A DNA stretch of 40,010 nucleotides from Dimargaris cristalligena (GCA_003614675.1 ML002343.1:1-40010); one strand, 5' to 3'. Shown: positions 3,001 through 36,682, counted from the first letter of the stretch. Notes: generated from the letters alone by a model not told the origin. A program made the numbers and translations.

Positions 3001-3164
3001 ACGATATCTATAAGGCCCACCCCGTGCAGGCCCCTCGTAATTCCCTCTACGGCGGGGCCCCAGCGGGTGGCAGAAAGGGACCGTCGGGCCACCCGGGAGT
3101 CGCGGATGATGCCCAGTCCGACTTTGGCTCGGAATTGAATTCCCAAAAATTCACGCAGTTCTAG
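2..3164 (+). CDS. UPF1: Regulator of nonsense transcripts 1 / UPF1 (NAM7) SF1 RNA helicase, 5'-truncated by the window edge; apparent +1 frameshift at T6 (23-28)
   Basis: End of the Cys/His-rich domain ([29 protein letters not shown]), Walker [19 protein letters not shown], Walker [34 protein letters not shown] and [11 protein letters not shown]. Low-complexity S/Q/G/H C-terminal tail with SQ motifs. Confidence 0.97.
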
Positions 3165-4789: not shown

Positions 4790-6229
4790 TCAAGGACTGG
4801 GTTGAGTATGGGTGGAATCCAATGTTAAGCCATCCAGGAAGATCTGGTTGACCGTGGTATTGGGCGGAGCATTCACAATTTGCACCAGGGCATGCTGAAT
4901 AAAGCCTACCATACGGTCAATGGAGGCTTCCGTGTACAGTTTGGTATTATAGAACACCACTGGGTCAATACTGGACCTTTTTTCAAAAAAATCGACAACA
5001 AGATTAGACTTGATCAGCTCAAAGAACCGAACGTCGGATACTTTCAAGTTGTGGGTGGGGTTGGACCCCATGGAGTCGGGTAGAATATCATAGCCCATCT
5101 CCGTGGCATAGGGGGTTTCGGTGGGGGGTTTCCCCGATGCTGCTGCCGTCCATTTAAAGATATCGACTGGACTAGTGTATTCAAACTGGGCTAAGTTAGT
5201 GTCCGTCTCTTCCAATGATAGGAGCCACGATTCGATGGTGGAGTGGCCCAGACGTACTCGAAAGGGAAGCATGTTGATACAAGGTCCAATCGTTTGGTCC
5301 ATGGCGGGAAGATTAAGGCGGCGGCCGGAAGTGAAGGTTTTGAAGGTTACCTCATTCTGGTCCAGGAGGCGGCCCAAAACGACGGCATAGGCGGCCCGGA
5401 GGAGGGTGGTAACCGTAATGCCTAGTCGCTCCGCAAATTGGTACAGGGCTTCTTTGGAAACATCGAGTTTGGTTATATACACCGTATGGCCTAGTACACC
5501 GACATGGTTAGAGGCAGAAGGGGGTGCGGGTGTAGGGAGGGCATCTTGCAAATAATTGATCCAAAACGTTTGGGTCTGGAGAGGGTCTACCTGATGGTGC
5601 ACATGGTCAACTAACACTGCATGAGTGACTGCTGGCGGAGGAACGGCTAGCTGGGGACAGTGGTAGGCCTCCAGTAGCAGCTTGAGTAAGGTGAAGAGCG
5701 ACAGACCGTCCATTAGTGAATGGTGCAATGAAAGAACTAGGATATGAACGTTCGTGTCCATGGTGGGGAAGACAAAGTTGTGAACCATGTGGTTTTTTAT
5801 GCAAAAGCCACGCTGGTTGTTCTCCATGAGAAAGGCATCCAAGGAAGACAGGGGCTCGTCAACGACCACCCATGCAGTAGGGCAGGAACGTAGAACGACT
5901 TGGGCGAACTCGGGTGTCTGTCTACCCGGTAATTCGATAAAGTGGGACCGCAAAGGGGCATGCTGTTCGGAAACGGCATTCCAGGCCTGTATCAATTGAG
6001 GAACCTCCAATGGGCCCGTGAGGGTGGCCGACAATTGAATGTGGTAAGCGGTCGGGTCGGCGGTGAGGTCCATAAGCACAGCAGACTGGGCCGAGATACA
6101 CGGTAGAAAGTCCTCTACCTGGCTAAGCGGGATCTGGCGGTTAGCCAATTCATTGACTACCGCTTGAGTCTCGGTATCAGAGAGTTGGAAATAGGCGGAC
6201 TTGAACAGAGTGTCAGTAGCACGTAGCAT
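4790..6229 (-). CDS. Stand-alone NRPS condensation (C) domain protein, 479 aa
   Basis: C1-like VEDFLPCISAQ, AWNAVSEQHAPLRSHF, catalytic HHxxxDG (LHHSLMDG), FW, LRAAYAVVL and TSGR...IGPCINMLPFRV. No A or T domain in the ORF. TATAAA on the minus strand about 140 bp upstream (~6368-6373). Confidence 0.88.
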   Translation of the reverse strand: MLRATDTLFKSAYFQLSDTETQAVVNELANRQIPLSQVEDFLPCISAQSAVLMDLTADPTAYHIQLSATLTGPLEVPQLIQAWNAVSEQHAPLRSHFIELPGRQTPEFAQVVLRSCPTAWVVVDEPLSSLDAFLMENNQRGFCIKNHMVHNFVFPTMDTNVHILVLSLHHSLMDGLSLFTLLKLLLEAYHCPQLAVPPPAVTHAVLVDHVHHQVDPLQTQTFWINYLQDALPTPAPPSASNHVGVLGHTVYITKLDVSKEALYQFAERLGITVTTLLRAAYAVVLGRLLDQNEVTFKTFTSGRRLNLPAMDQTIGPCINMLPFRVRLGHSTIESWLLSLEETDTNLAQFEYTSPVDIFKWTAAASGKPPTETPYATEMGYDILPDSMGSNPTHNLKVSDVRFFELIKSNLVVDFFEKRSSIDPVVFYNTKLYTEASIDRMVGFIQHALVQIVNAPPNTTVNQIFLDGLTLDSTHTQPSP

Positions 6230-7272
6230 GGTTGGCTGACTCGATTACTAAAACGAAGGAGGCGAGGCTAGGGATGGGCGTACTGGGAATATATGGATGG
6301 ATAGCGAGTAGGTAATGCCAAAAGGGACTCGGTGAAGTTAGAATTAAGGTGTCCGGCCGGAAAATTATTTATAAAGCAGGGCCAGTCATAATTGAGGTAT
6401 TAATCTGGAGTGGAATCGGGGGCTCTATGAAAAAGACCTTTAACCCGGGTGAAAGGCTCCAGTGGCATCAAACAGACTATACCTACCCAAACTCTGTTTT
6501 ATTTCTATGGGTATCCGCTTATTCTTGGCATTTACCAATACACGGCTGCAAATAAGGCAAGGGGCATGTTAATCTAATAGCGATAATGTATCATTTAACC
6601 TGTAATTCGCCTTTAATGTTCCCACCATCACCCGTCGGCACTGTACGATGAGAGATAAAGCTGTTCGTGATGTCAGGGCCCAATAAATTGGCAGGCAATC
6701 TTTGTTTTCATGCGTTTACGGCCGCCTTGCTTAGTCAGTTGTCACTCCGTCGTGCGATGTAGGCCGTTGGGTGCATTCGGTGGCAAAGTCGAGTGAAACG
6801 ATCCCTCCAAGCCGGCCGATTGGTTAAGAGCACCTGGGAGCACATGCCAAGCCACAGGTGATACCGTTATCATCGATCAGGGCGTAAGTGTGAAAGTGCC
6901 AGTATACCGTGTAGATGTTTCCCATAGGAACGATAATCCATCATCAAAAGTTGAAAGAGCCTGAGAAGTATGAGGGCGTAACCGCCGGGTCATTAATTAA
7001 AGCAACGATGGTACTGTACACCATGCCATAGGTGTATGTGCGAGAAAAATGGCGGGGAAACATCCGAAGAGAATTTCCGAATAGTAAGAATCGATGGGGT
7101 TGGGATGTCGTAATGAAACAATCTGGCAATATATTAGGCCATAGAGCATTGTATAGTGCGGGCTAAGGTCTACCCAGCGAGGTAACTAAACCGAAACATT
7201 TATTTGATGATGAGGGATGTTAGTGGCCAAGAACCCATCTACAGTCTACTCTCCCGTACACGCACACCATAT

Positions 7273-8212: not shown

Positions 8213-9011
8213 ATGGGCAGCAGTAAGTTTTTATTCGATATGTTCCCCTAGCTGCATTGGTATCCCATAGTGGGCGGTGCTGAGAATAGAGCGCCAAGAC
8301 CGACCGACCTGCACTCCCGCTTGAATCTGGTTCAGGGCGTCATATCGACCGGTGTATTTATTCTGGAGAGTCAATGTTTAGGCCCGCTATACCATATCCG
8401 GTCCTATATAATAATGCGACATGCTTAATTTGTACTAGCGGCTTTCTACAACCACTAACCACCCTCATCTGCATGTACCTCTAATTCTCTTTCAATCAAT
8501 AGACCAACCCGTTCGTTATTTAATAAAGCGTCCCAGGCGCATGTCGCGAGATAAGGATGTCATCAATGAAAATGGCGAAATCGTCTACCGTCGACTGTCG
8601 GGGACGCTCGGCAGCCTGAAGCGATTTGAGGAGGCCATAACAAAGGAGGTAATTTGGAAACACCCGGCCAAATTCCCATCCCCTGATAAGCGCGAATTTA
8701 TCAATCCCCGCACGGTCACCCGGGTCTTATTAATCCAGGATCACGGCTTTCACCAAACCTGGTACCGCTTCACCTATAGTGGCAACAACTACATCTGGAA
8801 GAGCGTGTCCTCCTTACACACTGAGCTCAAGTGCTACCACGAGGATAGCGGTATCCTCGTGGCTGAATTCAACGACAGGATTGGCAAACCCAGCTCCATC
8901 AATATTTACCCATTATCGGGGTGGGTTGATGGTTTCCAGGAGTTTCTGATATTTAGCGGTATTGATGTGGGTGAAACGATTATAGATTGTTACGGCACCA
9001 CTGGCTATTAA
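8213..9011 (+). CDS. Small hypothetical fungal protein (~172 aa), two exons (8213-8222, 8503-9011); possibly DUF6593/LURP-one-like beta fold
   Basis: ATGGGCAGCA|GTAAGT donor, CTAAC branch point near 8455 and CAATAG acceptor at 8502 join in frame to the 8541 ORF (MGSNQPVRYLIKRPRRMSRDK...). The motifs YRFTYSGNNYIWK and LVAEF resemble that family. TATAAA at ~8064. Confidence 0.7.
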
Positions 9012-10079: not shown

Positions 10080-11057
10080 TTAAATGAAATGGGATGGGTC
10101 CAACTTGCACGACGGCTTATCGTTAGTGATAGTGGGCCCCGAGGCGGTGTTGGTCGTGGTAGGAGGAACCATCACCCTATCGTACCCACCAAGCGCATCA
10201 GGGACCTCTGCGACCCCCGCTTTCGGCGATTCGTAGTGCACTATATTCGAACTATTGGAGTAATAACGATGGTATAGACGACCAGCATCATCCAACTTTA
10301 GAGTATTGGTATACGTCAGAGGAAAACATTCCGTGTACCCAGATACTGGGCGTGGTCGATATATTTTTAATGCCATCGACACATCAGTCCAGCCCTGCTC
10401 AGCGGCACGTGCATATACTTTATCGCGTATTTCACCGGTATTGCCTACGAAGTTTAATAGCGCCCGAAAAAACTCGGGTTGACCGTAGGTCTTGGCTATA
10501 GAGAGAGCCCGGGCTATATGAGGGTCGTCGATTTCGGAAAAGAGGTTGAATTGTTGCAGGTCCATGGCAAATGTAGGCGTTAGGGTGGCGAACCGGGCTA
10601 AAGTATAGACCGCCATTTCGAACATGGCCCCTCCACACGAGTGTCGCAGCGAGTTCGTTTGTTCCAGTTGACTGACCAATTCTAGACGATCGTCCGGAGT
10701 TTTGGGCGAATTCACCCACACGACAGCCTTCTGCAGAAAATTAGAGATACGGACATAACTCGGAAGAATCCGGCGTTTTATTTCGAGCTCGAGCACTGTC
10801 ATGAGTGAAGGGGACATTGCTAAATCCATCAACTTCTGCAGCTGCTGTAAATCACCCTGGTGAATCTGGTCCTCGAGGAACTGAAAAGCGCCGACAAAGG
10901 GGTCGTAGTCCCGTTGGGCGGAGTCAGTTATGGGGACCACTTGGACATGAGTGTGGAGCCATGCGAGTTCAGGGTGAAACTCCCGCAACGCCTTCTGGAG
11001 TTCCACGTCATTGGAAGTTTCCGGGTTAGGTTTCCCGGTACCCGTTATGGGTTCACC
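10080..11057 (-). CDS. Orphan helical protein (>=325 aa; last exon, upstream exon not resolved), weak ankyrin-like helix pairs
   Basis: The frame stays open upstream of the listed GTG to a CTAAT...CCTTAG branch/acceptor at ~11058-11073. The segment ALSIAKTYGQPEFFRALL...AAEQGWTDVSMAL resembles degenerate ankyrin repeats. Confidence 0.6.
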   Translation of the reverse strand, partial: GEPITGTGKPNPETSNDVELQKALREFHPELAWLHTHVQVVPITDSAQRDYDPFVGAFQFLEDQIHQGDLQQLQKLMDLAMSPSLMTVLELEIKRRILPSYVRISNFLQKAVVWVNSPKTPDDRLELVSQLEQTNSLRHSCGGAMFEMAVYTLARFATLTPTFAMDLQQFNLFSEIDDPHIARALSIAKTYGQPEFFRALLNFVGNTGEIRDKVYARAAEQGWTDVSMALKIYRPRPVSGYTECFPLTYTNTLKLDDAGRLYHRYYSNSSNIVHYESPKAGVAEVPDALGGYDRVMVPPTTTNTASGPTITNDKPSCKLDPSHFI

Positions 11058-11960
11058 TAAGGTTGTGTATTAGAGGCGTGACAGAGGAAGATGGATATTG
11101 GACTCGACAAACCCCGGGAGAATCCAGTTAAGAATGAGCGACTGGGTTAGAACAATTGTGACGTTAGTGTTGATGTCGGGCAGGTATGGACTGAAATGGA
11201 GAGACATTCCGGACGTCCTAGCCAAGACCTATATTTTTAGAAGAATTGATGGCGGTATCATTGAATCAATGGTTACAGCCGGAGACTGAAAATCAAATAG
11301 GTTAAAAATACGGGAGAATTAAATAAGTATTTTGGTGTTTATGTTATATAATGGGGGTTAGGGATGCTCGGGGGAAGGCAGAGTTACCCATTCAATCATG
11401 GAGTAATATATTATAAGGCGAAAAATACCTCGTTGGCGATCTGATCCCTTGTGCGCTGCACTTGGTTCTGTTCAATTGATACACCGTCTGCCTGCCATTG
11501 GTCACCGGGGCCCACCGTTGGGAAGGGGGCCTTGTACCTCATATTATTCGGAACAGTTGTGGGTATACGAAGAGGACGAAGTATAGGGGGGATGACATGG
11601 TTGAATGCCAATCTACTGACAGTCTAAGGACTAATGTAAATAATATAACCATTTGACATAATAAGCGATCACTCTTGCACATTAATATCTGTTGGTAAAT
11701 GTTCAGCGGGCAATTGTGATGCTCAGGTAGAGTCTAACCACTATTGGGAAAATAACTATCATGGCAAAACAACTGTGGGCGGTAGAAAGCCATAAATGTC
11801 AGCATAGGATCAAAAAACAGGATATTTTCCTTCCGTCCAACCCAACTTACCACTAATACCCCCTCCTCCAACTATTTATTATTTAGAATAATGGGCCCTC
11901 TCGCTGGGGTGCATACTGGTATTTTACAAAATACCTTGAGTCGTTACCATTTTATGATAT

Positions 11961-12474: not shown

Positions 12475-15400
12475 TTATGACGAAAAAGGAGAGCCCTCTT
12501 TGGGTGTTCCTTCTATTGGGCCCACCATATTTGGCACTGGCACCTCCTCCTCTTCCCCGCCGGCCCGCTGGCCTGATTCGAACAAACTATCGTACATTTC
12601 ATTACTCAACAACTCATCCAGGGTGCTTTCCAATTCCGGTATTGACACTCGCTGCAGCCGGGCCATTTCCGGAAACAGCTGGTCGTAGAATAAACTCAGT
12701 CGCTGCTCCACCATTTGCTGTTCCTGGGGCAGTTGGCGAATGAGGGTAACTAAATATACGGCCAGCAGTAGTTTACGACTAGGGGTGAACATACGCGCGC
12801 GCATGGCACTGAGTAGAAGACGTGTGGCTTGTTCGCCGGCGCGTACTTGACACCACGCGCGGAGTAGGGCGGCAGTGGCGGGGCTGGTGAGGCGAAGACC
12901 GAGGTGCTGGGCCCGTTGGAGAAATTCGTCGATATGGGCGGGTAGTTGGTGTTGGACGCACGTCTCGAAGAGAAAGATAAGGGTGGTGTTGTTGGGCCGG
13001 AGGCCGTAGTCGATGATTTGGTCCCAGACCTGGAAGGCCAAATGGGGTTGGTCGACCTCCCGGTAGGCCCGGATAAGGGTGTTGAATAAAAGCAAGTCGA
13101 GTGGTTGAATGCCACCACTACCACCATTTCCCGTCTTTTCTGTGGGGACAGCAGCCGGCATAGGGCCTGAATGGGAATACGAGTTGGAACGCGACTGTGA
13201 AAGAGGGGGTGCCGAATCAATAAGTTTGCTCACCGCTGCCACGATGCCCTGGTGTTCGACCCCCTTACACTGTTTAAGTATCCCCACCAAGAGAGCCGGG
13301 TCCACGGTATAGCCATCCTCGCGGTGGCGCATCCGTTCGAGTAGTTCCCACGCACGCTCCAACTCACCGTTTCGGGCCAACGCCGTGATGGCCGCGGTAT
13401 ACAAGGCCCGGTGGAACGGAATGTTCAGTGCCTGGCATTCATCGACGGCGGCCACCGCCAGGGCATTCCGCCGACCTCGCAGGAGTCCCGCAATCACGGT
13501 GGCGTACATAGTATTATCCAGCGCCAGTCCGTCGCGTTTCAAGTCCGCAACAAGGGGACTCACCGCCTCGAGGCGGCCGAGGGCGAGCGCGCAGCGGAGG
13601 AGGGACCGGTAGATCGAATAAGTCGTCGGTAAGCCGAACCGGGCCAATCCGGCCCGTACCGCCAGGGCACTATCCAAGGCGCGGTTTTCGCATAGACCCG
13701 CAATCAAATGGCCGAACACGAAAGCATCGGGTGGGAGTTTATGTTCAACCATCCGGTCGAATAGGGCCCGCGCCGCGTCCACCTCGTGCAGTTGCAGGTG
13801 GGCCCGGATCATGAGGCCGTAAAGGGCCCGGTCCCACGGTTGGTCCCGGAACTGTTGGACGCGGTCCATCATCCGTTCCAGTAAATCGCTACGGTGATGG
13901 ATGGCCAGGCGCAGCATAATGGCTAGGGTGAAGACGTTGGGGGTGACGGGACCCCGTCGCTGGGTCAGTTGTTCGAAATGGGCCACGGCACGCTCGGGAC
14001 AACCCCGGCGGACTAGGGTTTGGAGGATTTGGTTATGGACGATAATGGGGAGCCCGTCAAGTTGGGCGAGGGAAGCGTCATTGACCAAGGAATCGAGCGG
14101 GGTCGACGTGCCCGGGGGTAGCAAGCCCAATGCCCGGATGAAATTGCCGCGTAGAAACGAGTCGATGGGAATGTGGTAGGTTTGGGTATCGACGTAGAGC
14201 TCCTCTATCCAGACCAAGTGAGGATGACTCTCCCCGCCGCTGCTTCCACTACGAAGGCCGTGCATGAGCAATATATCGATGGTATAGCGATCGGGCCCTT
14301 CCGGCCGCCGCTTCAGACTTCGGTATACCTGGAGGGCTCCCCTGGTATTATCCATTTCGAGCAGCCCTAAAATCAGCTGATTACAGTCCTTGCGGGACAG
14401 ATCCGACGTGTCGTGGGGGATATGTTTCAGCATTTCCCGGGCTTCCATGGTTTGGCCTGTGGAGGCGAACCCCCGGAACAGGGTGATGAACACGTACGGT
14501 TCCACCGGAAACTGGTGGCTAAGCCACCCCCGTAGCACCATGTAGCCCTCGTCAAAGGCCCGTAACGCCACACACAGCTGCATGAGAAGGCGCCCGGTTT
14601 GAGCGTCGGGGGTGTACCGATACTGGGGCAATTGCTTTTTTAAAAACGCGAGAGCTCCTGTGGAGCTACGGGTCCTTGCCCGTAAAAAGTAGGTCAGGAG
14701 GCCGTGGATGATGAGTAAAGGGGCTGACACATTGAGCTCCCGGAACCGGTCGAGGACTAGGCAGGCTAGGGCAATGCGGCCCTGAAGGATGTAGCTGTGG
14801 GCCAGGATCCGGCCGTTCCGAACGGCGTGTCGCCGCAACGAGCTGTTGCGCTGGAGTACAGACACGGGACCGCGTAACAGATCCAAGGGCCGGTGAACGT
14901 GCTCGAAATCATCACTCATTCGATCCAGGAGCGCCAGACGCTCGACCCGGGCCGCATCCAAGTGGCGCCGTTGGGCATCAGTGGACTGATCGGGCCCCCC
15001 GGGAGTGTTGTGCGCGATTGAAGTGGCCGTCACTTCTAAATAGTTCATGAGCAGGGTGAGGGCCTGCTGGAACGCCGCGGGGGATAATTGATCGATCAGC
15101 CCATTGTTAGACATGTGCAAGTAACTCCGACGTAGCTGGTCGTAGTCGAAAACCGAACGGGCTAGAGCGGTTTCGAAGGACTCGGGATCCGCAAAAGGTT
15201 CGGGAAGGGATGCGGATAAGATAGCGTCTACCATGGCCGAGCGGCGTGGCTGAGCGGAGGTTCCCGAAGGCGACGGTGGGGTCGGTGTTGGTGAGGAGAA
15301 TGAGGAGGACAAAGACGACGAAGAAGTAGGTAGGGCTTTCGGGCTCGCCCCGTTGGCCTCACTTCCATTGCAGGGGGTGGAGACATTTTGGGGATCTAAG

Positions 15401-15585
15401 GAAGTTGGAGATAACGGTCGTGGTGGATAAAGCGGCGGTGGGCTGGCAAGACACCGGGCCAAATGCAATATAGGATTTAGTAAGACCTGCGGACGCACCG
15501 ACCCTTGGGGAGGGGAACCTCCTAGTAATAGGCGACATTGACCCGTTATCTGTCGAGCCAGAAGACCATAAACGGTATTGAGCAT
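12475..15585 (-). CDS. Pentatricopeptide repeat (PPR) protein, probably mitochondrial
   Basis: Many ~35-aa PPR-like repeats (YGLMIRAHLQLHEVDAARALFDRMVEHKLPPDAFVF; YTAAITALARNGELERAWELLERM; FNTLIRAYREVDQPHLAFQVWDQIIDYGLRPN). The likely start is MLNTVYGLLARQ at 15585, with an acid-poor presequence-like N-terminus. The ORF extends to 15708. Confidence 0.9.
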   Translation of the reverse strand: MLNTVYGLLARQITGQCRLLLGGSPPQGSVRPQVLLNPILHLARCLASPPPLYPPRPLSPTSLDPQNVSTPCNGSEANGASPKALPTSSSSLSSSFSSPTPTPPSPSGTSAQPRRSAMVDAILSASLPEPFADPESFETALARSVFDYDQLRRSYLHMSNNGLIDQLSPAAFQQALTLLMNYLEVTATSIAHNTPGGPDQSTDAQRRHLDAARVERLALLDRMSDDFEHVHRPLDLLRGPVSVLQRNSSLRRHAVRNGRILAHSYILQGRIALACLVLDRFRELNVSAPLLIIHGLLTYFLRARTRSSTGALAFLKKQLPQYRYTPDAQTGRLLMQLCVALRAFDEGYMVLRGWLSHQFPVEPYVFITLFRGFASTGQTMEAREMLKHIPHDTSDLSRKDCNQLILGLLEMDNTRGALQVYRSLKRRPEGPDRYTIDILLMHGLRSGSSGGESHPHLVWIEELYVDTQTYHIPIDSFLRGNFIRALGLLPPGTSTPLDSLVNDASLAQLDGLPIIVHNQILQTLVRRGCPERAVAHFEQLTQRRGPVTPNVFTLAIMLRLAIHHRSDLLERMMDRVQQFRDQPWDRALYGLMIRAHLQLHEVDAARALFDRMVEHKLPPDAFVFGHLIAGLCENRALDSALAVRAGLARFGLPTTYSIYRSLLRCALALGRLEAVSPLVADLKRDGLALDNTMYATVIAGLLRGRRNALAVAAVDECQALNIPFHRALYTAAITALARNGELERAWELLERMRHREDGYTVDPALLVGILKQCKGVEHQGIVAAVSKLIDSAPPLSQSRSNSYSHSGPMPAAVPTEKTGNGGSGGIQPLDLLLFNTLIRAYREVDQPHLAFQVWDQIIDYGLRPNNTTLIFLFETCVQHQLPAHIDEFLQRAQHLGLRLTSPATAALLRAWCQVRAGEQATRLLLSAMRARMFTPSRKLLLAVYLVTLIRQLPQEQQMVEQRLSLFYDQLFPEMARLQRVSIPELESTLDELLSNEMYDSLFESGQRAGGEEEEVPVPNMVGPIEGTPKEGSPFSS

Positions 15586-15940
15586 GCGGAAGGACAAAGG
15601 CAATGTTAGACGACTATAAGGCCTTTCGGGACTGGCGGAATTGAACTCAAAAGCAAGTAAATAAAAAGCTAAGCTGGATCGAATGGTTGCCCAGTGTGTC
15701 GAGTGCATTCAATTGAGCAAGGAAATCGTCCCGTTTTTGGATTCCTGTATATGACTTTGCAAATTGCGACTTAGACTTGAATAGTTCGGCTCGAATGAAT
15801 GAAACCGACTTCATACCTTCACATTTGAATATTTAAAGCCAGAGCCATGAAATTATCTAAATGGCCACTCCGTGGAAAATAATGCTTGGTAATTGGGTTT
15901 TCAAGGTCAAAACTCAATTACCAAGAATCTATTATAAATT

Positions 15941-16023: not shown

Positions 16024-18520
16024 TCCGTCTGTTCTTCCGTCCTGCTGGTCGTGTTGCACCAATGCAGCCATTGGCTTAGTTAGCCGTTACCGTTACACTG
16101 TTTAGGATGACTGGTTTAGTGTATAGCCAAAACCACTAAACCATTTAACCAATCTGGCATTTTCGTGTATCTCTCCGGTTTTTTACCGAAAAAGCTGCAT
16201 GTATTTGCTAGTACAATTAAGGCCAATCCAATAACCCTTGTATTCACAGGTGTTGCCCCAGCGAGCCTGACATGGCCAGCCGGCCATCAATGAAGGAGGG
16301 CCCAACGGAAGAAAATTGGCACTGCCTATCTAACTAAAGGTAGGGTTCAAACGAAATGGAGGCGCCCCATTTTAGTGTAAAACCCCAAGCCCACCGTCGC
16401 CAACACAGAGCTAAGCAAAGCAGTATTCTTCTTTCAATAGCTGATTTTATCTTATATTTACTTGGTCAATTTGGTCCCCAAATCTCAAGCGGCCTTCAAT
16501 GACATGTGTAGTCCGCTCAATCAATTGTTGATCACCCATCGCCCATAGTATCTGTTAGGCGTCTTACCTCTTGGTAGGCGGATCTCCCATTTTAACTCTT
16601 TTGAATTTCAGGCACAAACGCCAATCATTTCAGAAGTTTTTAAACAAGAACGCCCGGGAAAACATGAAGGCATCTATTGTGTGGACCCTTATCGTCATCG
16701 CACCGGTGCTTTCAGCTCCTTCAACCAGTGCCGGCGCTAAAGTCAATGACCTCGCCGACTTGCCGTACGAAATACAGGAACGGGTTCTGAAAGAAATTCC
16801 CATCGAATCACTTTACGCCGGTGCTACAGCCAACCCCAAGTGGCGGGACATGATACTGAGATATAGGCATACTGTGGTGGACTCGGTAAGTGCTCGTGCC
16901 TTATATAAGTTGACCCCCCCCTTCATGCCACTTGATATATTAAAATGTGCTACAACAGGGTTTCCCCGAACGTGCCGCTTTATTATAGTTTACTTGGGGG
17001 TGCTGTTCTTAACTTGGGAATGGTATAGTGAGGCTTCTAATCTCTTTTGATTGTCTATAACGTTTAACTACACTGTATTCAAATCATCTGGGGTAGGCCC
17101 TAAAAGCACTGCAGCACCTTCCGGACACGAACCAAGTATTCGAGGCCGCCGGTCCCTCGATGGTTCTGCAAGGCCAAGCCGCCCTGGTTCCCCTGTTTGA
17201 CGGGTTTATTGCCTCCACGGTTATTCAAAAACTCATTCGACCTTTACTCGAATCAACGGAATTGACCCACCTCGACCAACCTGGCACGGCGGACTTACCC
17301 CACCGCCGTTCCTACACAAAACTCTTTAGGAATGCTTGGCCGTCTTTCCTTCAACCCCGCCCCGAAAGGTCGGTGGGAGGAACCTCAACCACCCCTACCG
17401 ACACCTCTTACGACTCCACTTTGGCCAACACGGCAGCGACGGCAAACTTGGATGAGGCTGGAGTTGCATCTATATTGGCCACCTATAACAACCGGGCGAG
17501 TGAAACTAAGATTTCTGAATTCAAATCAAGCCCACTGGAGGGTACTTTTTACCCAGCTCTGCAGCTGGTCATGGACGGAAAAGTGGCCGATTTGGTCAAA
17601 TTAACCGGCTGGACCTATAGTCCGGTGTTTGCTTCCTGGGTGGTGAAACATATAGCCCCTCTTATTCCCGGGGATTTGGCCCGAGCCACTGATTACCTGG
17701 TGGTCCAAGAGGTGAACCAATTCACCCAATTTTGTCGGAATTTCGTAGGCAACGACGACAACCACAATACGGAAAGTGAACTACCGAGATGGAACCAGTC
17801 GGAGGAAGGGTCTGTGGAAGATGAGTCCCAAGGTGCCACCACCGCTAATCCGGCGACGACTGTTGCAAACACGGCCGATGCAGTGGCATCAACCAACAAC
17901 AACTGGCGACTGACTCTTCTACCCGAACGATTGGCTGATAACCTGGTCCACTCCATTATTCTAACCTTAGTTCAGCGTGGCGACTTGGCCAGCTTGACCG
18001 ACTATCTGAACCAGGTTCGAACTAATCACCCCCGTGTGGAACCGTTCGTCCCCCTCGTCCTCATCATGGCCGCCAGTGTGGAAATTCCCAACCGCCGGGC
18101 CATTTTTAAATACTTTAAACCGGAACTGAAGGCATGGAATATCCACCGACCCCTTTACAAATGCGCCCAAAAGTACAGCTGGCTTAAAGTCCGCTCGCAA
18201 TTTTCGAAATGGGCCTATACTTTTGAAAGTGAATACTCCTACAAAAACATCATGGTGAGATGTGATTCGTCGGCGCCTAATAATGCGGTGGCCTATTTGA
18301 CCCCCCAGGGGCAAGTATCGTTTCGCTTTTACCACAATTAATAGATCTCTCTACTTAACTCAATTGAATACTAGGCCTGGTGTGGGCGGTAAAAGAATAT
18401 GCAATCTCCTAATACAATCTACCTGTATACATGTATACATTGGTAATGGGGTTGTAAAATCGGATAGTTGACTGGTCAGGTCAGGGTTGTCGGTCAACCT
18501 AACCCCGCATACAAATATTC
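16024..18520 (+). repeat. Tandem segmental duplication, unit A (promoter + gene + 3' flank)
   Basis: Colinear with 18910-21486 from TCTGTTCTTCCG through CTAACCCCGCATACAAATATTCG. Confidence 0.9.
16664..18341 (+). CDS. Signal peptide + F-box-like protein, paralog A (exons 16664-16885, 17097-18341; ~488 aa)
   Basis: Signal peptide MKASIVWTLIVIAPVLSA, then LADLPYEIQERVLKEIPIESLYAGATANPKWRDMI (F-box pattern). A phase-0 intron GTAAGT...GGGTAG joins exon 1 in frame to the 17160 ORF. Confidence 0.85.
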
Positions 18521-18702
18521 GGGAGCACTTATAATATTAACCCGGCCTCCGTTTCCTCCCATTCTATTTAACATAGGTGTTCTACGTCCATATTGTGCCA
18601 TAACTAGCTGAATTCACCCGCACTGCCTCTACATATTAATAGGATGACCCAGACAATTAGCCGAATTACAATTCGGGTCAGTATGTTATTATAAGGACGT
18701 AT

Positions 18703-18844
18703 GGGTGAAATTCGACCCATTTGTATAAGGATTTAAATAATACGTACATGGGAAAATAAACGGGTGATTCTATTATAATCAGCAGTATTTACATCACCCA
18801 ACGGATTTTTCGATATACAGCCCCTAGTTGAATCCAAATCTCCC
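18703..18844. mobile_element. MITE copy 3 (142 bp), between the duplicated units
   Basis: GGGTGAAATTCGACCCATTTGTATAA ... TATACAGCCCCTAGTTGAATCCAAATCTCCC, flanked by AT on both sides. Confidence 0.8.
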
Positions 18845-18909
18845 ATTTACTTTCCCGTGCACTCGTCGTTCCTAACCCTATACAGTTGGCTGGAATTCCA
18901 CCCACATCC

Positions 18910-21486
18910 TCTGTCTGTTCTTCCGCCCTACTGGCAGTTACACTAGTGTAGCTATTGGCCGAAGAAGGCGTTACACTGTTTGGGATGTTTAGTCTATTAT
19001 ATAGCCAGGGCATCGCTAAAATATTTAACCAAGCTGGCGTTTTCGTATATCTCTTCAGCCTATAGCGTATACGTGCCCCTATTTTCCTTGCATAGACTAT
19101 TAAGGTCGCCCCAATAACCTTGGAATCCACATGTGTTACTCCAGCAATACTGACATGGCTAGCCGGCTATAACATGAAAGGGGGCCCAACGGAAGGTTGG
19201 TACTACCTACCTAACTATAGGTAGGGTTCAAGCTAAAAGGAATTGCACCATTTTGGTATAAGAATCCGGGAATATCTTCGCCAGCACGAAGCTAAGCAAA
19301 ACAGCATTCCTCTTTACACGGCCAATTTTATCCTATCTTTATTTGGTTTATTTGGTTTCAACCCTTCGAGTTGTTTTCAATAGCATGTGTAGTCCGCTCA
19401 ATCAACTATTCATCACCCGTCTTCCATAGCACCTGCTAGGCGTATCCCCCATTTAACCATCCCGAATTTCAGGCCCAAACGCCAATCATTTCAGATATTT
19501 ACACGTAAATTTAGCCCAGCACTCGCCAAAATTTATAAACAAGAACGCCCGGGAAAACATGAAGGCCTTTAATGTATGGACCCTTGTCTTCATCGCACCG
19601 GTGTTTTCAGCGCCTTCAATCAGTGACGGCGCTAAAGTCCAAGATCTCGCCGACTTGCCGTACGAAATACAGGAACGGGTTCTGAAAGGAATCCCCATCG
19701 AATCACTTTACGCCGGTGCTACAGCCAACTCCAAATGGCGGGACATGATACGGAGATATAGACATACTGTGGTGGACTCGGTAAGTGCTCGTGTCTTATA
19801 TAAGTTGCCCCCCCCCTCCCTTCTTACCACTTAGCATTGATTGGGAAGCGCGCTGGGGAAGGACAACGTCTTGTATTCAAATGGGTCACCAGGTCTTTAA
19901 CCTGAACACCCCATTTTTGTATTCTAGCATGTTGGGGAAGTAGTATTGTAAATTAGGGAATAACATATAGCCAGGCGTCTTAATTTTTTTTTCTTGAATG
20001 ACAAAATTATATTTTAACGTCACTATATTCAAATCATCTGGGGTAGGCCCTTAAAGCACTACAGCACTTCCCGGACACGGACCAAGTATCCGAGGACGCT
20101 GGTCCCTCGACGGTGCTACAAGACCAAGCCGCCTTGGTTCCCCTGTTTGATGGGTTTATTATTTCTACGGTCATTCAAAAACTCATTCGACCATTCCTCA
20201 AAACATTAAATTTGGCCCATCTTGACCAACCTCGCCCTGCCGATACACCCGAGCCCCACCAATCCTTCGGGAGTCTCTTTAGGCCTAGGTCGTCTTTTCT
20301 TCAACCCCGCCCCGAAAGGTCGGTGGGAGGAACCTCAACCACCCCTACCAGCACCTCTTATGACTCCACTTTGGCCAACGCGGCGGCGACGGCAAACTTG
20401 GATGAGGCTGGAGTTGCATCTATATTGGCCACCTATAACAACCGGGCGAGTGAAACTAAGCTTTCTGAATTCAAATCAAGCCCACTGGAGGGTACTTTTT
20501 ACCCAGCTCTGCAGCTGGTCATGGACGGAAAAGTAGCCGAGTTGGTCCAATTAACCGGCTGGGCCCATAGCCCGACGTTTGCTGCTTGGGTGGCGAAGCA
20601 TATAGCCCCTCTTATTCCCGGGGATTTGGCCCAAGTCGCCGATTATTTGGCGGACCGAGAGGTGGCCCGATACGGCCAGTTATTTTGGTATTTCGCAGGC
20701 TATGGCGATAACCATACCCGAGGTGAACTACCGGAATTGAACCAGCCGGAGGAGGAGGGGCTCGTGGAAGATGAGCCCCGGGATACCACCACCACTAATC
20801 CGGCGGCGGCTGCTTCAAACAGCACAACCGATTCCATGGTTTCAGCCAACGACAACTGGCGACTGACCCTTTTACCCAGCCGACTGGCCGAGAACCTGCT
20901 CCACTCCATCATCCTCACCTTAGTTCAGCGTGGCAACCTGGCCGACTTGGCCGATTACCTAAACCAAATTCGGATGAACCACCCCCCTGTGGATCCCTTC
21001 GTCCCCCTCGTCCTCATCATGGCCGCCAGTGTAGAAATCCCCAACCGCCGGGCCATTTTTAAATACTTTAAACCGGAACTGAAGGCATGGAATATCCACC
21101 GATCCCTTTACAAATGTGCCCCAAAGCATGGCTGGCTTAAAGTCCGTTGGCAATTCTTTAGAATAGAATATGCTTTCGAAAATGAATACTCCTTCAGCAA
21201 CCTTATGGTGCGATGCCATTTGGCGGTGCCTAATAATGCGGTGGCTCATTTGACCTCCCGGGGGCACGTGTCGTTGCGTTTTTACCATAATGAATAGATG
21301 ATCTCTCTATTCAACTCAATTGACTATGAGGCTGTGGTATAGGTGGTAAAAAAATATACAATTTCCTATTATAATCTACCTGTGAACGTGTTTACACGTT
21401 TACATTGGCAATGCGGTTGTAAAATCGGATAATCGCCTGATCAGGTCAGGGCTGTTTCCCAGTCTAACCCCGCATACAAATATTCG
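18910..21486 (+). repeat. Tandem segmental duplication, unit B
   Basis: Colinear homolog of 16024-18520, including upstream region, intron ends and 3' flank. Confidence 0.9.
19559..21297 (+). CDS. Signal peptide + F-box-like protein, paralog B (exons 19559-19780, 20047-21297; ~490 aa)
   Basis: MKAFNVWTLVFIAPVFSA + LADLPYEIQERVLKGIPIESLYAGATANSKWRDMI. Same 222-nt exon 1 and same GTAAGT...GGGTAG intron position as paralog A. Confidence 0.85.
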
Positions 21487-21499
21487 AATGCATTCATAT

Positions 21500-22119: not shown

Positions 22120-24151
22120 TTAAATGCCTACTGAACGCTTATTCTCGGGGGCACGGGCCAGGTCCTCCCGCTGACTTTCAGTGATCAGGCGGTTCACGGC
22201 GGCCAGGTAAGCCTTGGCACTAGACTGGAGAATATCGGTATCGGTACCCAGACCCTGGTACACGGGCTTCGAGCCAAGGACGAAGTTATCGGCCGTTTCC
22301 TTCTCAGGCGACTGCTGCGGACCCTCGTCATCACTACCCCCGTTGACTCCCGGCATGGGGGCCTGGCTGATGCGCACCACTACTTTGCCCAGGGCATCCA
22401 GCTCACCACTGACTGCCTTGAGCTCGAACAGCTCCAGCTTGCAGTTGATTTTGATGGCCCGCTGGATGGCGCTGAAGATGGCCTCAATGGGACCAGTGGT
22501 GGAGGTGGCGGCCGCCGTCAGGGTTTCGCCCGACTGGGTGTGCTTGATGACCACTGTGGCAGTAGACGGAGTAGCGGGGCTGGAATTGGTCATCACTTGC
22601 ATGTTCTCCAATTCCAAGTAGGTATGGGTCGAAGCGGCCACGTTCATTTGGTCGGACACTAGGGCGATAATGTCGGAGTCGGTGATCTGCTGCTTCTGGT
22701 CGGCCAAACGCTTGAACTCGTCAAACGCCGACTGGAGCAGGTCCTGGTCAATGTCGGTGTAACCCAGGTCGGTCAGGCGGCTGCGGAAGGCGTTACGACC
22801 GCTGTGCTTGCCCAGAACCAGGTTGTTGGTAACGACACCCACATCCTCGGGGCGGATAATTTCGTAGGTCTCCTTGTTCTTGAGCACACCGTCCTGGTGA
22901 ATACCCGACTCGTGCAGGAACGCGTTCTTGCCCACGATGGCCTTGTTGGGCTGTACGGGCATACCACTAAGGTCGGCCACCATCTGGGATACCCGGGCGA
23001 AGTGCACGGTGTTGATGGTGTGGTGCACGGGGTACGTGTTGGGGTGGGTATGGATGTTCATGACGACTTCCTCCAGGGCGGTATTACCGGCCCGTTCGCC
23101 GATGCCGTTGATGGTGACTTCCACCTGACGGGCCCCGTTGGTGATACCGGCCAGGGTGTTGGCGGTGGCCAGACCCAGGTCGTTGTGGCAGTGGGTGGAC
23201 CAAATGGCCTTTTCGCTACCGGCGGTGTTGTCGATCAAATACTTAATGCGGGCGCCGTACTCGCTGGGGGTGTTGTAGCCTACAGTGTCGGGAATGTTCA
23301 AGGTAGTGGCGCCGGCTTCAATGACCGCGGCCAGAACCTCGCACAGGAAATCGGGATCGGACCGACCGGCATCCTCCGGACTGAACTCGATGTCTTCGCA
23401 CAGCGACCGACCCAGACGCACAAACTCGATGGCGCGGGCCACACACTGCTCACGGGAAATCTTCAGCTTGAACTTGAGATGGATATCGGATGTGGCCAGG
23501 AAAATGTGAATCCGCTTCAGAGGCGCATCTTTGACGGCGTCGTAGGCGGTACGGATATCCTTTTCGACGGCCCGGGCGAGACCAGCGATAACCATAGGCT
23601 TGCCGATCTTGTCGCGGCCCTCCATGAGGGGACCCACCTCGCGAGCGATCCGCTGGACGGCGTTGAAATCACCGGGCGAGGCTACTGGGAAACCGGCTTC
23701 GAGCACATCCACCCCCAGGCGGGACAGGGCCCGGGCCAGTTGAATCTTGTCGTCGGCATTCAGAGTGACACCAGGGGACTACACATATTGAGTATAGGGC
23801 ACAGGGAGTTCAGAATCCGAGATGAGAGGGAGGGTGGAGATATGGGTAGACGAAATGTATGCGAAGGAGGGGAGAGGGAGTTAGTGACTGGGAAAACGAA
23901 GGAAAGAAGGTTTGCTGAGCCAATAGCTATGTAAAAAGAGGGATAGCTGGGCCCTCTTTCAGTAATCAAGCAGTCACACAGCCTCTCACATCCCACGGGC
24001 AGGGGCCGGAGTAATGTGTAGAGGTTACTCAAGCACTAATGGAGGGGTGGTGTATTCTGTATTTTGTGAAACCTACCTGTTCGCCGTCGCGGAGGGTGGT
24101 ATCGAAGATGATTAGCTTATCTTTGCTAGACTGGTTCTGTACTGAGGCCAT
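22120..24151 (-). CDS. leuA: 2-isopropylmalate synthase (exons 24151-24077, 23778-22120; ~577 aa)
   Basis: Splicing gives MASVQNQSSKDKLIIFDTTLRDGEQ|SPGVTL. Motifs LEAGFP, FSPEDAGRS, IPDTVGY, HCHNDLG, GIGERAGN, HESGIHQDG and LGKHSGR, plus a C-terminal regulatory domain (GPIEA, SAKAYLAAVN). Confidence 0.96.
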
Positions 24152-25970: not shown

Positions 25971-28487
25971 TTAACCATGTTTGTGCAGATACATGGTGTA
26001 GCCGAACCCATTACGATCCTTTTCGGAGACCAGAGGAGGGTGGGAGTTGAGGAAGAGCTCTTCGCCACGGGACAACAGACAACCCCAGCACCAATTCCAA
26101 CGCCGGAGCATTTCCAGGTCCTTGAGACACATGCTGGTACTCGCTTCGTACACGGGTAGTACCACCGCCAACCCAAACGGGGAAATGGGGTCTTTGGTGC
26201 CGTGGACCAGGATCAGTTGGGCCATGTGCACAATCTGCTGAAGCAGGTAGAACCGCCAGGGGGACAGGGCCAATAAGCCCCGGATCAGGGTAATTTCAGC
26301 GGGCGAGGGCGTCCACTCGAACGATGGCGACCCCACCACCAGACCAGGGGTCGACCGCATATCCACCGGGAGTTCGGGTAAAAGCTGCATCAGGGCGATC
26401 ATGACCGAGTCGGGGATAAGACCATCGGGCAGCTGCTGGATGCAGTGTTTGATGTGGGAGGCCACCAGAGTGAGGTTGGTCCGCACCGGACTCTTGAGGT
26501 TAGGCAGGGAAATGCTGCTGAAGCTGGCGCTAGTAATACCGCCGATGCCTCCGCCTAGTCCACTGCCGCCAGGGGTGCGGGGGGAGAGAGGCGAGCGGGG
26601 GGTCTGGCCCAGGAAGGGGGAGGAGGCGAGCGCCGCGGGCTTCCAGGGGTCTTCGTCCGTACTCGGGGGTACCCGGGTGTACTCAGACCCTTCCGTGAAA
26701 TGGCTGTCATTGGTGCACCGCGAGGAGGGTCGGGGCCGAGGGACCGGTGAAGCGGGAGCCGCCGCATAATCGACGGTGCGGCAGTAAGCGGCGTATAAAT
26801 CGGGGTATTCGCGGGGGCGGCTAGGGGAGGAGACCAGTGCATTGGTGGACTTGGCCGGCACCGGGCAGGAATTACGGTTGGGGGTCAAACGAATCATCAT
26901 CGGGTCGTCAAAGGTCGTCGTGGACGAGTTCCGATGGGGTGGTGGCGGTAGCATGAGCACTTGGGATTGCCGGTCCGTCTCCGTCGATAGTCGTTCAAAG
27001 TACTCCTCGAACCCGAGTTCATTCATGAGACGCAGTTTGCGGTGGTCGGCACTCTCGCGGAACCAGTGGCTGGACAATTGAAGCATATAGTCGGGCACAT
27101 CACTAGACAGCAGGTAGTCAAAGGAGACCTGCAGTTCCTCAAACAGGGACAGTGGGGGCGGGGTCTGAAGCATGCGGGGCAGGGTGTGGACCACGGGGAA
27201 GACTGCGGCGGGAGTGAGCGTGTGGGGTAACGAAGGGCGAGTCAGCAGTTCCACCATGTTCATGAGGATGATTTCGGTGCCCACTAGGAGGGACGGATCC
27301 ACGGTTTTGGACTTGGGGGTGACCAGTAAGGCGGCGTTGGGACCGTTGGGGGGATCGGGGTCCGTCAGCATGGCGGTAAACACCGTGGGCACGGGGGTGG
27401 GATAGAGAAACGAGAGGTGGCTTTGGCGAGGTGGCCGGGGGGCCATCCGCCGTTTGGTATAGGACGCCGACCGGGCATGAGAGGAAACGGACCCGCGCCG
27501 GAGGGTCGCTTTGCCCTCCTCGAGTACGGCCCCCCCGGTTGAGGTCAGATTGGCCGAGTCCTGCAGGGTCACGACGGATAATTTGGTCGGGAGGTGCTGC
27601 TGGATTTGGGCCATGAAACTCACGCCCAATTCCAATGCATATAGGGAGTCTTCGTTCTGGCTGGAGTATTCGGAAAGGGTCGGCAGGGCGGCAATCTGCA
27701 CTAGTGGACCAGCCATCAGGGCATTGGGCATGTGAAGCTTGACGGCGGCGAACCCGTAGATGATGCAGTACTGACGCAGAAACCACCGGGCATCCTGTTT
27801 GGGGTAGCGGGCGTCCGACCGCCCGATACCGCAGAAGCTGCGGCGACTTTTATTGGCGGCGTTGGTCGCGGTCGGGGAGGTATCGGACGCCTGGGCGGCG
27901 GCAATAATGGCCAGCCAGCATTCCTGGACGACCCGGGACAGATAGGCCTTGGGGGTCAGGCGTTCGCCGGTCAGGTTACCCCCGTAGGGCTTCCGCACAT
28001 TGTCCTTGAACTTGTCCCGGGCGGTCTGCAGCGGAATAAAGTCGGCCACGTCGCGGGTCCGGATACCCCAGGTCATGGTCTCGGCTTTTTCCAGTTTGAG
28101 GCACGCGAGTTCGTCGGCGAAGATAACGGTGATAAGCTTCAGCACGTAAAAAGGGGCATAGTCGGTCAAATAGGTGGCGGCGGTGGCCTTCTTGTCGGCG
28201 GCCATTTGACACTTGGTATCGGCCACCAGGTCCTGCACGTGCTTTAGCTTTTCGTGGTTGAGCCGCCGGGAGCGGGAACTATGTTTAGGTTTGACGAAGA
28301 CGCCCTGGACCACCCGCACGATGCGCTCCAGCCGCGAGCGCTGGCAAATAGATGAGACGGAACTGCGGTTTAGGTCGTAGGTACGGACGGATGACACGGA
28401 CGAGCCGGGGCGACTAGTTACACAAGAGGTATATTGGCGGTGCATTTTAGCCTTACGGTGGGGCGAGCGGTACTTGGCACCGATCAT
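25971..28487 (-). CDS. Hypothetical protein, 838 aa, with degenerate RhoGAP-like C-terminal segment
   Basis: Long GC-rich ORF with S/P-rich disordered linkers. VASHIKHCIQQLPDGLIP resembles RhoGAP VASxLKxFLRELPEPLIP, followed by LLQQIVHMAQLIL and GLAVVLP. Confidence 0.75.
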   Translation of the reverse strand: MIGAKYRSPHRKAKMHRQYTSCVTSRPGSSVSSVRTYDLNRSSVSSICQRSRLERIVRVVQGVFVKPKHSSRSRRLNHEKLKHVQDLVADTKCQMAADKKATAATYLTDYAPFYVLKLITVIFADELACLKLEKAETMTWGIRTRDVADFIPLQTARDKFKDNVRKPYGGNLTGERLTPKAYLSRVVQECWLAIIAAAQASDTSPTATNAANKSRRSFCGIGRSDARYPKQDARWFLRQYCIIYGFAAVKLHMPNALMAGPLVQIAALPTLSEYSSQNEDSLYALELGVSFMAQIQQHLPTKLSVVTLQDSANLTSTGGAVLEEGKATLRRGSVSSHARSASYTKRRMAPRPPRQSHLSFLYPTPVPTVFTAMLTDPDPPNGPNAALLVTPKSKTVDPSLLVGTEIILMNMVELLTRPSLPHTLTPAAVFPVVHTLPRMLQTPPPLSLFEELQVSFDYLLSSDVPDYMLQLSSHWFRESADHRKLRLMNELGFEEYFERLSTETDRQSQVLMLPPPPHRNSSTTTFDDPMMIRLTPNRNSCPVPAKSTNALVSSPSRPREYPDLYAAYCRTVDYAAAPASPVPRPRPSSRCTNDSHFTEGSEYTRVPPSTDEDPWKPAALASSPFLGQTPRSPLSPRTPGGSGLGGGIGGITSASFSSISLPNLKSPVRTNLTLVASHIKHCIQQLPDGLIPDSVMIALMQLLPELPVDMRSTPGLVVGSPSFEWTPSPAEITLIRGLLALSPWRFYLLQQIVHMAQLILVHGTKDPISPFGLAVVLPVYEASTSMCLKDLEMLRRWNWCWGCLLSRGEELFLNSHPPLVSEKDRNGFGYTMYLHKHG

Positions 28488-29898
28488 AGGATGAGCCGAC
28501 TAGACAAGTAAAAAGAAATAGAAAAGAAACCACGACAGGGGTTGAAGTGGAGGCGGGGTGGGAGGCGAATTGGGACTGGCTACTAAAGGAGGTCACCTAT
28601 GGCTAAACGCGAGAAAAGACCCTAAAGAGGAGATGGGGTAAAGGGGAGGTTAAAGTTATAACAGCAGCAGAGGGAGAGAGTGGCTGGCGGTGGGTGGACT
28701 GAGAACTGCCAAGTGTATAAGGCAGGCACGCAGAGAAAGAGAGAGAAGGAAGGAGGAGACACAGGAAAGAACCGCCAAGTGAAGTGAAGTGAGGTAAGAG
28801 AGAGAGAATGGGAAAGAGAGGAAAGGAAGAGTCACTATCAATAATAGATACCACCGCTCAGTCAATGTATGCGGAAGCGACGGGGCCAGTACAACACGTC
28901 GATAAGGAGAGCAAGGGGTAGAGAGAACGCCAAGGGCAAATGACGACGACGAACAGGAAGGTCGTAAAGGAAGAGTCGGGCCACAAGGTCTACTTGGGGC
29001 AGGCTATCACGAGTATGTCACGGACGAAGTATCGATAATCAAAGGATAACGGTGAGGGATTATAATGATAGGGATGGCTCTAGCAATAGTAATAGGAATA
29101 GAGATATTATAATAATAATAATAATAATAACAACAACGGGAGGAAAGAAGGGAAAGGTCGCCGGGGCCTTAAGCAAGTCTAATAAACGACCACTAGACTA
29201 TTATAGCAGGCGTCTATCAAACGAGGAACGTAATAACAACAGAACGAAGCGCAAATCAAACAAACTAATAACAAGCGAGGAGGTCCACAATAGGAGGAAG
29301 AAATAGAGAGAGAAATAGAGCGCGGAGTCTGAAAAGTCCAAGGGTAAATAAACAAGGGATGGAATGCGCCCCTGTGGTTGGCTGGATTGGCCTACCACGT
29401 CGCGGGATGCTTCTGTTTTGGGAAAACGCGTGTTTGGCTGAGATTAGCGCGCGCCAGTCGAGTTGATTGGCCAAGTTGTAGAAATTTAGATGCACGAGTA
29501 GTTTAGGGTAATATTCGCCTATGGCTTAACTGGGCTGTCGGGGAGAGTCCCAAAGGAAATAGTACAGTCCAGATTTATAGGGATAGAGGAGGAGTCATCC
29601 AGTTAAAACTACGAATGACCAAAAAAAAACAACAACTACACAATACACCACAGTGGATAGCTGCCACGGCCGAGGGTCCCGCACCAGTCGCTTCACGGCC
29701 CACGTATTCAAACTGTAAATAAAGAGGGGTAGTTAGGTTTAGCCAACCCCGAGTTACACAGGCACTACACGTCCCGTAAGGACCAAATGTAAACAAGCCC
29801 ACCCTCCACTTTATTCAAATACCACCAAAAACTTACCTATTGAATGACAGTTGATGATGACTCTACTACACCTGCCGAGAGATGGATAATAGAACCGA

Positions 29899-36627: not shown

Positions 36628-36640
36628 GGGAAGGGAGAAA

Positions 36641-36682
36641 TAATAGTAGTAGTAATAATAATAATAATAATAGTAGTAGTAT
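36641..36682. repeat. Compound (TAG)/(TAA) microsatellite in the AIFM1 5' leader
   Basis: TAATAGTAGTAGTAATAATAATAATAATAATAGTAGTAGT. Confidence 0.8.

Follow-up and report, generated by a model that had tools for sequence, protein, structure and literature searches.

A tandem gene pair of Dimargaris cristalligena combining a signal-peptide-like leader with an F-box-like motif: candidate host-directed effectors of a mycoparasite

Among described proteins, the closest counterpart of the gene pair considered here is SSGP71 of the Hessian fly (Mayetiola destructor). The pair, genes A and B, occupies positions 16664-21297 on the plus strand of a 40,010-nt stretch of DNA from Dimargaris cristalligena (GCA_003614675.1 ML002343.1:1-40010); the window hereafter means this whole stretch. 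In the available parts of the papers describing it, SSGP71 has a signal peptide and an N-terminal F-box, binds wheat Skp1, and is thought to be delivered into host cells, where it mimics a host E3 adaptor (PMC7330099, PMC4617103). The available text also presents the bacterial effector RipG7, an imported F-box protein that recruits host Skp1 and the Skp1-cullin-F-box (SCF) ubiquitin ligase (PMC4617103). Legionella AnkB, in the excerpts available, is a bacterial F-box effector with the same logic of host-SCF recruitment. Agrobacterium VirF is a further bacterial F-box effector of this logic, a form of mimicry amply documented for bacteria. A first-pass annotation of the window had pointed out a tandem pair of genes with a signal-peptide-like leader followed by an F-box-like motif, and at the level of sequence this observation is confirmed. 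We tentatively read the two proteins as possible host-directed F-box adaptor mimics.

SSGP71 and the Dimargaris family have in common that a eukaryotic parasite pairs a signal peptide with an F-box, the Dimargaris family being known from its sequence. Behind the SSGP71 F-box lie leucine-rich repeats (LRRs), whereas the Dimargaris proteins continue into an orphan helical region in which no repeat was detected. SSGP71 is a very large family, in contrast to the four loci detected in D. cristalligena; its host is a plant, that of Dimargaris a fungus; and database searches detected no sequence relationship between the two. The bacterial F-box effectors (Ralstonia RipG/GALA, Legionella AnkB, Agrobacterium VirF) are injected by type III or type IV systems rather than exported by a eukaryotic signal peptide, bind substrates through LRR or ankyrin parts, and showed no detectable homology to the Dimargaris family. 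An LRR or ankyrin interaction repeat behind the F-box, the trait of SSGP71, RipG and AnkB, was not found in A and B. The N-terminal profile finds its best sequence match in yeast Cdc4, which also stands among the best structural matches, but the match ends at the F-box, and neither WD40 repeats nor any other known substrate-binding family were detected behind it in A and B. Cdc4 has no signal-peptide-like leader and acts inside its own cell.

Gene models and tandem duplication

By rebuilding introns, the first-pass annotation had joined four open reading frame (ORF) fragments into two proteins of about 490 amino acids (aa), and the resulting models coincide exactly with deposited ones. The spliced translation of gene A equals BJ085DRAFT_40028 (P0007, 488 aa) in every letter, and that of gene B equals BJ085DRAFT_32564 (P0009, 490 aa) in every letter. 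The database proteins matching the window bear the organism name D. cristalligena, and the UniRef label of the A and B proteins and of a paralogue, P0011, is 'F-box domain-containing'. Each gene has two exons, and the locus is laid out as follows.

16311..18533, plus strand: copy 1 of the duplication unit (promoter region, gene A, 3' flank), from direct-repeat families D1-D8
16664..16885, plus strand: gene A exon 1, 74 codons, equal to residues 1-74 of deposited P0007
16664-16738, plus strand: gene A leader, about codons 1-25, from leader features by classical rules
16751-16885, plus strand: gene A F-box-like motif, codons 30-74 (Pfam F-box-like at residues 30-65, E 0.053)
16886..17096, plus strand: gene A intron, 211 nt, GTAAGT donor, TAG acceptor, phase 0
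17097..18341, plus strand: gene A exon 2, 414 codons and stop
19192..21498, plus strand: copy 2 of the duplication unit (promoter region, gene B, 3' flank), from direct-repeat comparison
19559..19780, plus strand: gene B exon 1, 74 codons, equal to residues 1-74 of P0009
19559-19633, plus strand: gene B leader, from leader features by classical rules
19646-19780, plus strand: gene B F-box-like motif (Pfam F-box-like, E 0.014)
19781..20046, plus strand: gene B intron, 266 nt, GTAAGT...TAG, phase 0
20047..21297, plus strand: gene B exon 2, 416 codons and stop

Exon 2 of gene A completes the third F-box helix and also encodes two low-complexity linkers rich in serine and threonine (S/T) and the orphan helical region. 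Splicing was assessed by comparing copies A and B, not from transcripts; the four sequencing runs compared with the window consisted of DNA contigs, in which no splice-like joints were seen. Exon 1 is 91.4% identical between the copies and gap-free; exon 2 is 83.2% identical with some gaps, and its frames are open over 414 and 416 codons. Identity is 61.8% in the intron, where 14 of 17 gaps are not multiples of three, 67.3% over the upstream 350 nt (five of six such gaps) and 73.9% over the downstream 200 nt (four of five). Without splicing, a stop codon would end the frame of A after 128 codons and that of B after 91. The paralogues P0010 and P0011/P0012 share the layout of A and B, with a reading that is continuous over the exon junction. 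The two-copy comparison thus supports the predicted splicing of exon 1 to exon 2 in both genes. Directly 5' of the ATG the copies are separated by indels of 34 nt and 20 nt, which indicates that the upstream sequence is non-coding and the annotated ATG is the start. The same two indels rule out a coding exon further upstream, which would have turned the leader into an internal segment.

We consider it very improbable that the genes are annotation or assembly artefacts, or decaying duplicates not expressed as modelled. Although the models rest on copy comparison rather than transcripts, the frames are open over 488 and 490 codons, the exons are far more conserved than the intron and flanks, and both copies have canonical GTAAGT...TAG splice sites. 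In the structured parts the ratio of nonsynonymous to synonymous substitution rates (dN/dS) stays under 1, the layout is shared by two more distant paralogues, and DNA contigs from two separate studies contain sequence unique to each copy.

The genes form a direct tandem duplication of about 2.9 kb, with a start-to-start spacing of 2861-2965 nt by the same direct-repeat families, and the duplication takes in about 350 bp of upstream sequence. In the second D. cristalligena assembly, a single 489-aa protein corresponds to the pair (P0008, H4R33_003397). It is a mosaic: gene B is matched by about 150 residues at the N-terminus and about 65 at the C-terminus, and gene A by the stretch between them. 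Because sequence unique to each copy is present in contigs of run X4, we favour an assembly collapse of the pair over a genuine single gene; otherwise the mosaic could have arisen by recombination or gene conversion between A and B. Run X4 also lacks 3 nt at 20748 in the variable linker of gene B, which is an in-frame strain polymorphism in a low-complexity part, and shows eight single-base differences over both genes. Between genes A and B, at 18562-18735, contig word-depth in four DNA runs is about 1450-2260, against about 20-240 around it. Such a depth marks the segment as a dispersed repeat present in many copies, which may be a small mobile element. Loose contig ends at 18700 and 18764 indicate that this repeat is joined elsewhere to other sequence.

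Leader and F-box-like motif

The leader was assessed by classical signal-peptide rules, applied by script to five proteins and distinct from a trained predictor. In A and B, one basic residue precedes an uncharged run of 17-23 residues and an acidic flank follows it; there is a 12-residue hydrophobic core, and several sites obey the (-3,-1) rule. In all five proteins the uncharged N-terminal run measures 14-23 residues, the best 9-residue Kyte-Doolittle mean is 2.1-2.9, and 2-6 sites per protein obey the (-3,-1) rule and are followed by an acidic or neutral flank. A single basic residue stands before the run in four of the five; it is missing from P0011 as annotated but present in P0012, the model of this gene from the other strain, whose start lies seven residues further upstream. 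By these hand rules the N-terminus has the classical Sec-type build, with n-, h- and c-regions and small residues at -3 and -1, and it looks like a classical cleavable signal peptide, as the first-pass annotation had claimed for exon 1. The leader is present even in the 21%-identical paralogue. Between A and B its dN/dS is 0.76, against 0.37 in the F-box-like part, with hydrophobicity retained, a pattern typical of signal peptides.

Two other sorting signals were tried and rejected. A mitochondrial presequence does not agree with the leaders of P0007, P0009 and P0010, which have no arginine or lysine before about position 26 except the basic second residue, and it is also contradicted by the uniformly hydrophobic core. 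A glycosylphosphatidylinositol anchor or endoplasmic reticulum retention was rejected on the C-termini, which are polar with none hydrophobic and end in HDEL or KDEL in none of the five proteins.

The motif written out in the first-pass annotation was found in that form at residues 30-64 of both copies (LADLPYEIQERVLK.IPIESLYAGATAN.KWRDMI), beginning about eight residues after the leader. With either exon-1 peptide as query, the top-scoring Pfam family was PF12937 (F-box-like), its alignment beginning at profile position 1, with E 0.053 and 13.7 bits for A and E 0.014 and 15.6 bits for B; PF00646 (F-box) also matched, at 12.3 and 12.0 bits. When a profile of the four N-termini was compared with 177,635 PDB sequences, the top match was the Cdc4 F-box (1nex_B, E=0.06). 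This alignment spans the F-box exactly and is ungapped, with L-P, E-I, the hydrophobic positions and W in register. No variation occurs at P34, Y35, E36 and W60 in any of the four N-termini or the five aligned full-length proteins, and the Leu-Pro start, spaced hydrophobics and helix-3 Trp of an F-box are all conserved. ESM-Atlas neighbours of residues 27-130 were clusters with F-box families, with a top score of 0.91, which the tool's own rating treats as a lead and not as proof. The AlphaFold2 (AF2) model of exon 1 has helices at 35-43, 47-54 and 58-71, with block means of the predicted local distance difference test (pLDDT) of 69-79 over residues 31-70. With this model, 16 of the 39 Foldseek rows listed were chains of Skp1/F-box-protein complexes, all at E of at least 3, as judged from entry titles and lengths (Cdc4, Fbw7, FBXO22, Fbx4, Fbs1, Fbs2 and D3). 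The best of these was Cdc4 3mks_D, with a root-mean-square deviation of 1.5 over 37 columns.

Several of these results count against an F-box, and with it against the effector reading. The Pfam gathering thresholds are 24.3 bits for PF12937 and 20.5 bits for PF00646, and scores of 13.7-15.6 and 12.0-12.3 bits leave the exon-1 peptides outside formal membership of either family. With the full-length proteins the F-box match was weaker (P0009, E 0.19) or gone (P0007, P0010), and an F-box family was matched in just two of the four scanned N-termini. No Foldseek match among the 39 rows listed was significant. In a VIA-align comparison with 48,161 PDB representatives every Z was below 5: the top row was lpg1670, an uncharacterised Legionella protein (Z 4.6) that is not a Skp1-complex entry, and F-box chains such as 5ibk_E (Z 4.4) and 1nex_B (Z 4.0) were mixed among unrelated helical rows in the noise range. 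The evidence is weak test by test, and all of it lies in one direction. We regard the exon-1 motif as probably a genuine divergent F-box. The F-box proposed in the first-pass annotation is supported by weak but agreeing results from Pfam, PDB profile, Atlas and Foldseek, and does not reach the Pfam thresholds.

If the motif is an F-box, the proteins might also belong to an SCF of the parasite's own cell and regulate parasite proteins, the hydrophobic N-terminus being an uncleaved membrane tether or a buried helix. F-box proteins are normally cytosolic or nuclear, and the case for a secreted product is built from sequence rules. In three of the five proteins an internal helix equals or exceeds the leader in hydrophobicity over 12 residues, which also weighs against a signal peptide. 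The neighbouring genes are housekeeping genes, and fungal F-box families are often lineage-specific and expanded; the available part of one report describes a 31-member orphan F-box family in Choanephora (PMC5238444). However, a core of about 12 residues has the size of a signal peptide, compared with about 20 for a membrane span, and the layout is kept in all four loci despite 21% identity. By the positive-inside rule, under which charge layout sets membrane orientation, the basic residue ahead of the core and the acidic ones behind it would leave the remainder of the protein on the lumenal side and not in the cytosol. Nor does AF2 pack the leader on the F-box: residues 1-24 are unstructured in the exon-1 model, with pLDDT <50. 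An own-cell role therefore seems to us quite unlikely.

Orphan C-terminal region, distribution and proposed role

The C-terminal part, of about 410 aa, had been described as an unrecognised helical domain, and this description holds. Exon 2 of A and B matched zero Pfam families at E <=0.1, and no LRR, WD40, Kelch or ankyrin repeat that could bind a substrate was recognised by Pfam in the C-terminal region. An ESM-Atlas search with residues 190-488 gave no usable neighbour. The PDB sequence search with full-length profiles returned chance-level rows only; SigA (a low-complexity match, E 4.4) and triosephosphate isomerase (E 0.3, alongside Cdc4 at E 0.85) were rejected on this ground. The full-length AF2 model, built on a five-sequence alignment, is unusable at a mean pLDDT of 40 and was excluded from the fold search. 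Its low-confidence secondary structure is mostly helical with two short C-terminal strands, and S/T-rich stretches at about 128-193 and 291-347 are unstructured. C430 and C463 (gene A numbering) are invariant in all five aligned proteins, and a putative disulfide between them would fit a secretory protein.

These features bear on a further explanation, which we find rather unlikely: that A and B are secreted, lineage-specific proteins of the cell wall or the haustorial interface, whose F-box-like helices do not bind Skp1. The three-helix module would then be a chance look-alike or a co-opted F-box remnant, and the actual function would belong to the orphan helical region, to which a disulfide between the two invariant cysteines might lend stability. 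The leader would look the same in this case as in that of an effector. F-box scores below threshold everywhere, S/T-rich low-complexity linkers like those of many secreted fungal proteins, and a C-terminal region with no known substrate-receptor domain all agree with such a protein. On the other hand, four independent search types choose the F-box over other families, the motif is the most constrained N-terminal part (dN/dS 0.37), and L-P-Y-E and the Trp are invariant even in the 21%-identical paralogue.

The family was found in D. cristalligena only. A profile search of 1.84 billion representative proteins gave three matches (P0008, P0010, P0011), and two word-based searches of 5.8 billion proteins gave four and five. 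Together they define four loci, in all of which the layout of leader and motif recurs; P0010 is 53-54% identical to A and B, and P0011/P0012 21%. A metagenome scan with the family alignment gave 134 pattern matches, none of which was confirmed by tblastn. As a coverage control, the neighbouring LeuA has in the same database orthologues that are 72-73% identical in three other Dimargaritales (Dimargaris verticillata, Tieghemiomyces parasiticus, Dispira parvispora), as well as orthologues in many Kickxellales. Related proteomes are thus present in the database, yet without a detectable family member; low-coverage assemblies or fast divergence are possible reasons for this. Among the databases searched the family appears restricted to D. 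cristalligena. For the A-B pair as a whole dN/dS is 0.53; it is 0.32 over the final 140 codons and rises above 1 in two 40-codon windows, both in linkers. dS ranges from 0.04 to 0.55 along the gene, a variation from which we infer gene conversion between the copies. In being confined to one species, duplicated and evolving fairly fast, the family resembles many effector families.

Under the effector reading, the leader would route the A and B proteins into the parasite's secretory pathway. An F-box has no partner in this pathway, so that action would most likely follow export, in another cell. Exported from the haustorium, the proteins would act in the cytoplasm of the host fungus. Their F-box would engage Skp1 there, and particular host proteins would be presented by the orphan C-terminal region to the SCF ubiquitin ligase and so be degraded. 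Among fungi Skp1 shows high conservation. The first-pass annotation had supposed a haustorial mycoparasite, and the names of the matching database proteins bear this out, together with the available part of a report according to which Dimargaritales form a haustorium within the living host fungus and take up their food through it (PMC9866270).

Besides the F-box scores and the leader comparison given above, some points weigh against such effectors. Delivery of proteins by a haustorial mycoparasite into the host cytoplasm is supported neither by our data nor by the literature searched; four loci are not a large expansion; the neighbours of A and B form no effector cluster; the C-terminal region shows no recognisable substrate-binding repeat; and the signal peptide is assigned by hand rules rather than by a trained predictor. 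The effector reading fits the sequence features and makes A and B plausible candidates, which we hold with somewhat less than even confidence. The stronger proposal, that these would be the first fungal secreted F-box effectors, acting fungus-on-fungus as SCF-adaptor mimics with a new substrate-binding domain and targeting host Skp1, is more tentative still. Observation reaches as far as a sequence resembling a signal peptide plus an F-box; whatever goes beyond this we infer. We therefore regard the pair as a good candidate for testing rather than a demonstrated system, with a partly supported, hypothetical interpretation.

To our knowledge, the effectors of haustorial mycoparasites belonging to the early-diverging fungi have hardly been characterised. 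The first-pass annotation knew of no comparable system in fungus-fungus parasitism. Effectors combining a signal peptide with an F-box have a precedent in SSGP71, so novelty would lie in the fungus-on-fungus setting. In the literature searched we found no description of a fungal secreted F-box effector, no link between Dimargaris and the F-box, and no use of the phrase 'secreted F-box'. Among the matches listed, work on 'F-box effectors' was bacterial or off-topic and in no case fungal, and the titles and abstracts on mycoparasites, F-box and secretion named no secreted F-box protein. The main text of the D. cristalligena genome paper contains no mention of F-box, ubiquitin, 'secret', 'effector' or 'signal peptide', and that of a zygomycete secretome paper none of F-box or ubiquitin and does not name Dimargaris; secretome tables in the supplements of both may list the A and B proteins. 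In the available part of a Kickxellomycotina comparative paper, ubiquitin occurs once, in a cited title, and the passages on secreted proteins and effectors are not about F-box proteins.

If the effector reading is true, the proteins would extend a known strategy, in a new variant, to a hitherto unstudied type of interaction, and F-box mimicry would have arisen independently a third time, besides its origins in bacteria and the gall midge. Mycoparasite haustoria would then be shown to translocate proteins into host cytoplasm, and the pair would provide a new substrate-receptor domain and a concrete means of testing how a parasitic fungus delivers proteins into its fungal host. Should the effector reading be false, an F-box-like module behind a secretion-type leader would still be unusual.

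Other genes of the window

The remaining features of the window come from a Pfam scan of ORFs, apart from four ORFs with no Pfam family at E <=0.001.

3-3164, plus strand: UPF1-type RNA helicase
4790-6244, minus strand: nonribosomal peptide synthetase (NRPS) condensation-domain ORF, 484 codons (PF00668, E 5.9e-36)
8439-9011, plus strand: ORF of 190 codons, no Pfam family at this threshold
10080-11069, minus strand: ORF of 329 codons, no Pfam family at this threshold
12475-15708, minus strand: pentatricopeptide (PPR) repeat protein
22120-23778, minus strand: 2-isopropylmalate synthase (LeuA)
25971-28499, minus strand: ORF of 842 codons, no Pfam family at this threshold
33322-33888, plus strand: fumarylacetoacetate (FAA) hydrolase fragment
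34462-36681, minus strand: oxidoreductase like apoptosis-inducing factor (AIF)
38665-39270, minus strand: ORF of 201 codons, no Pfam family at this threshold

A tRNA scan of the window returned zero genes. The NRPS ORF fits the available part of a report in which D. cristalligena is described as rich in secondary-metabolite genes (PMC9866270).

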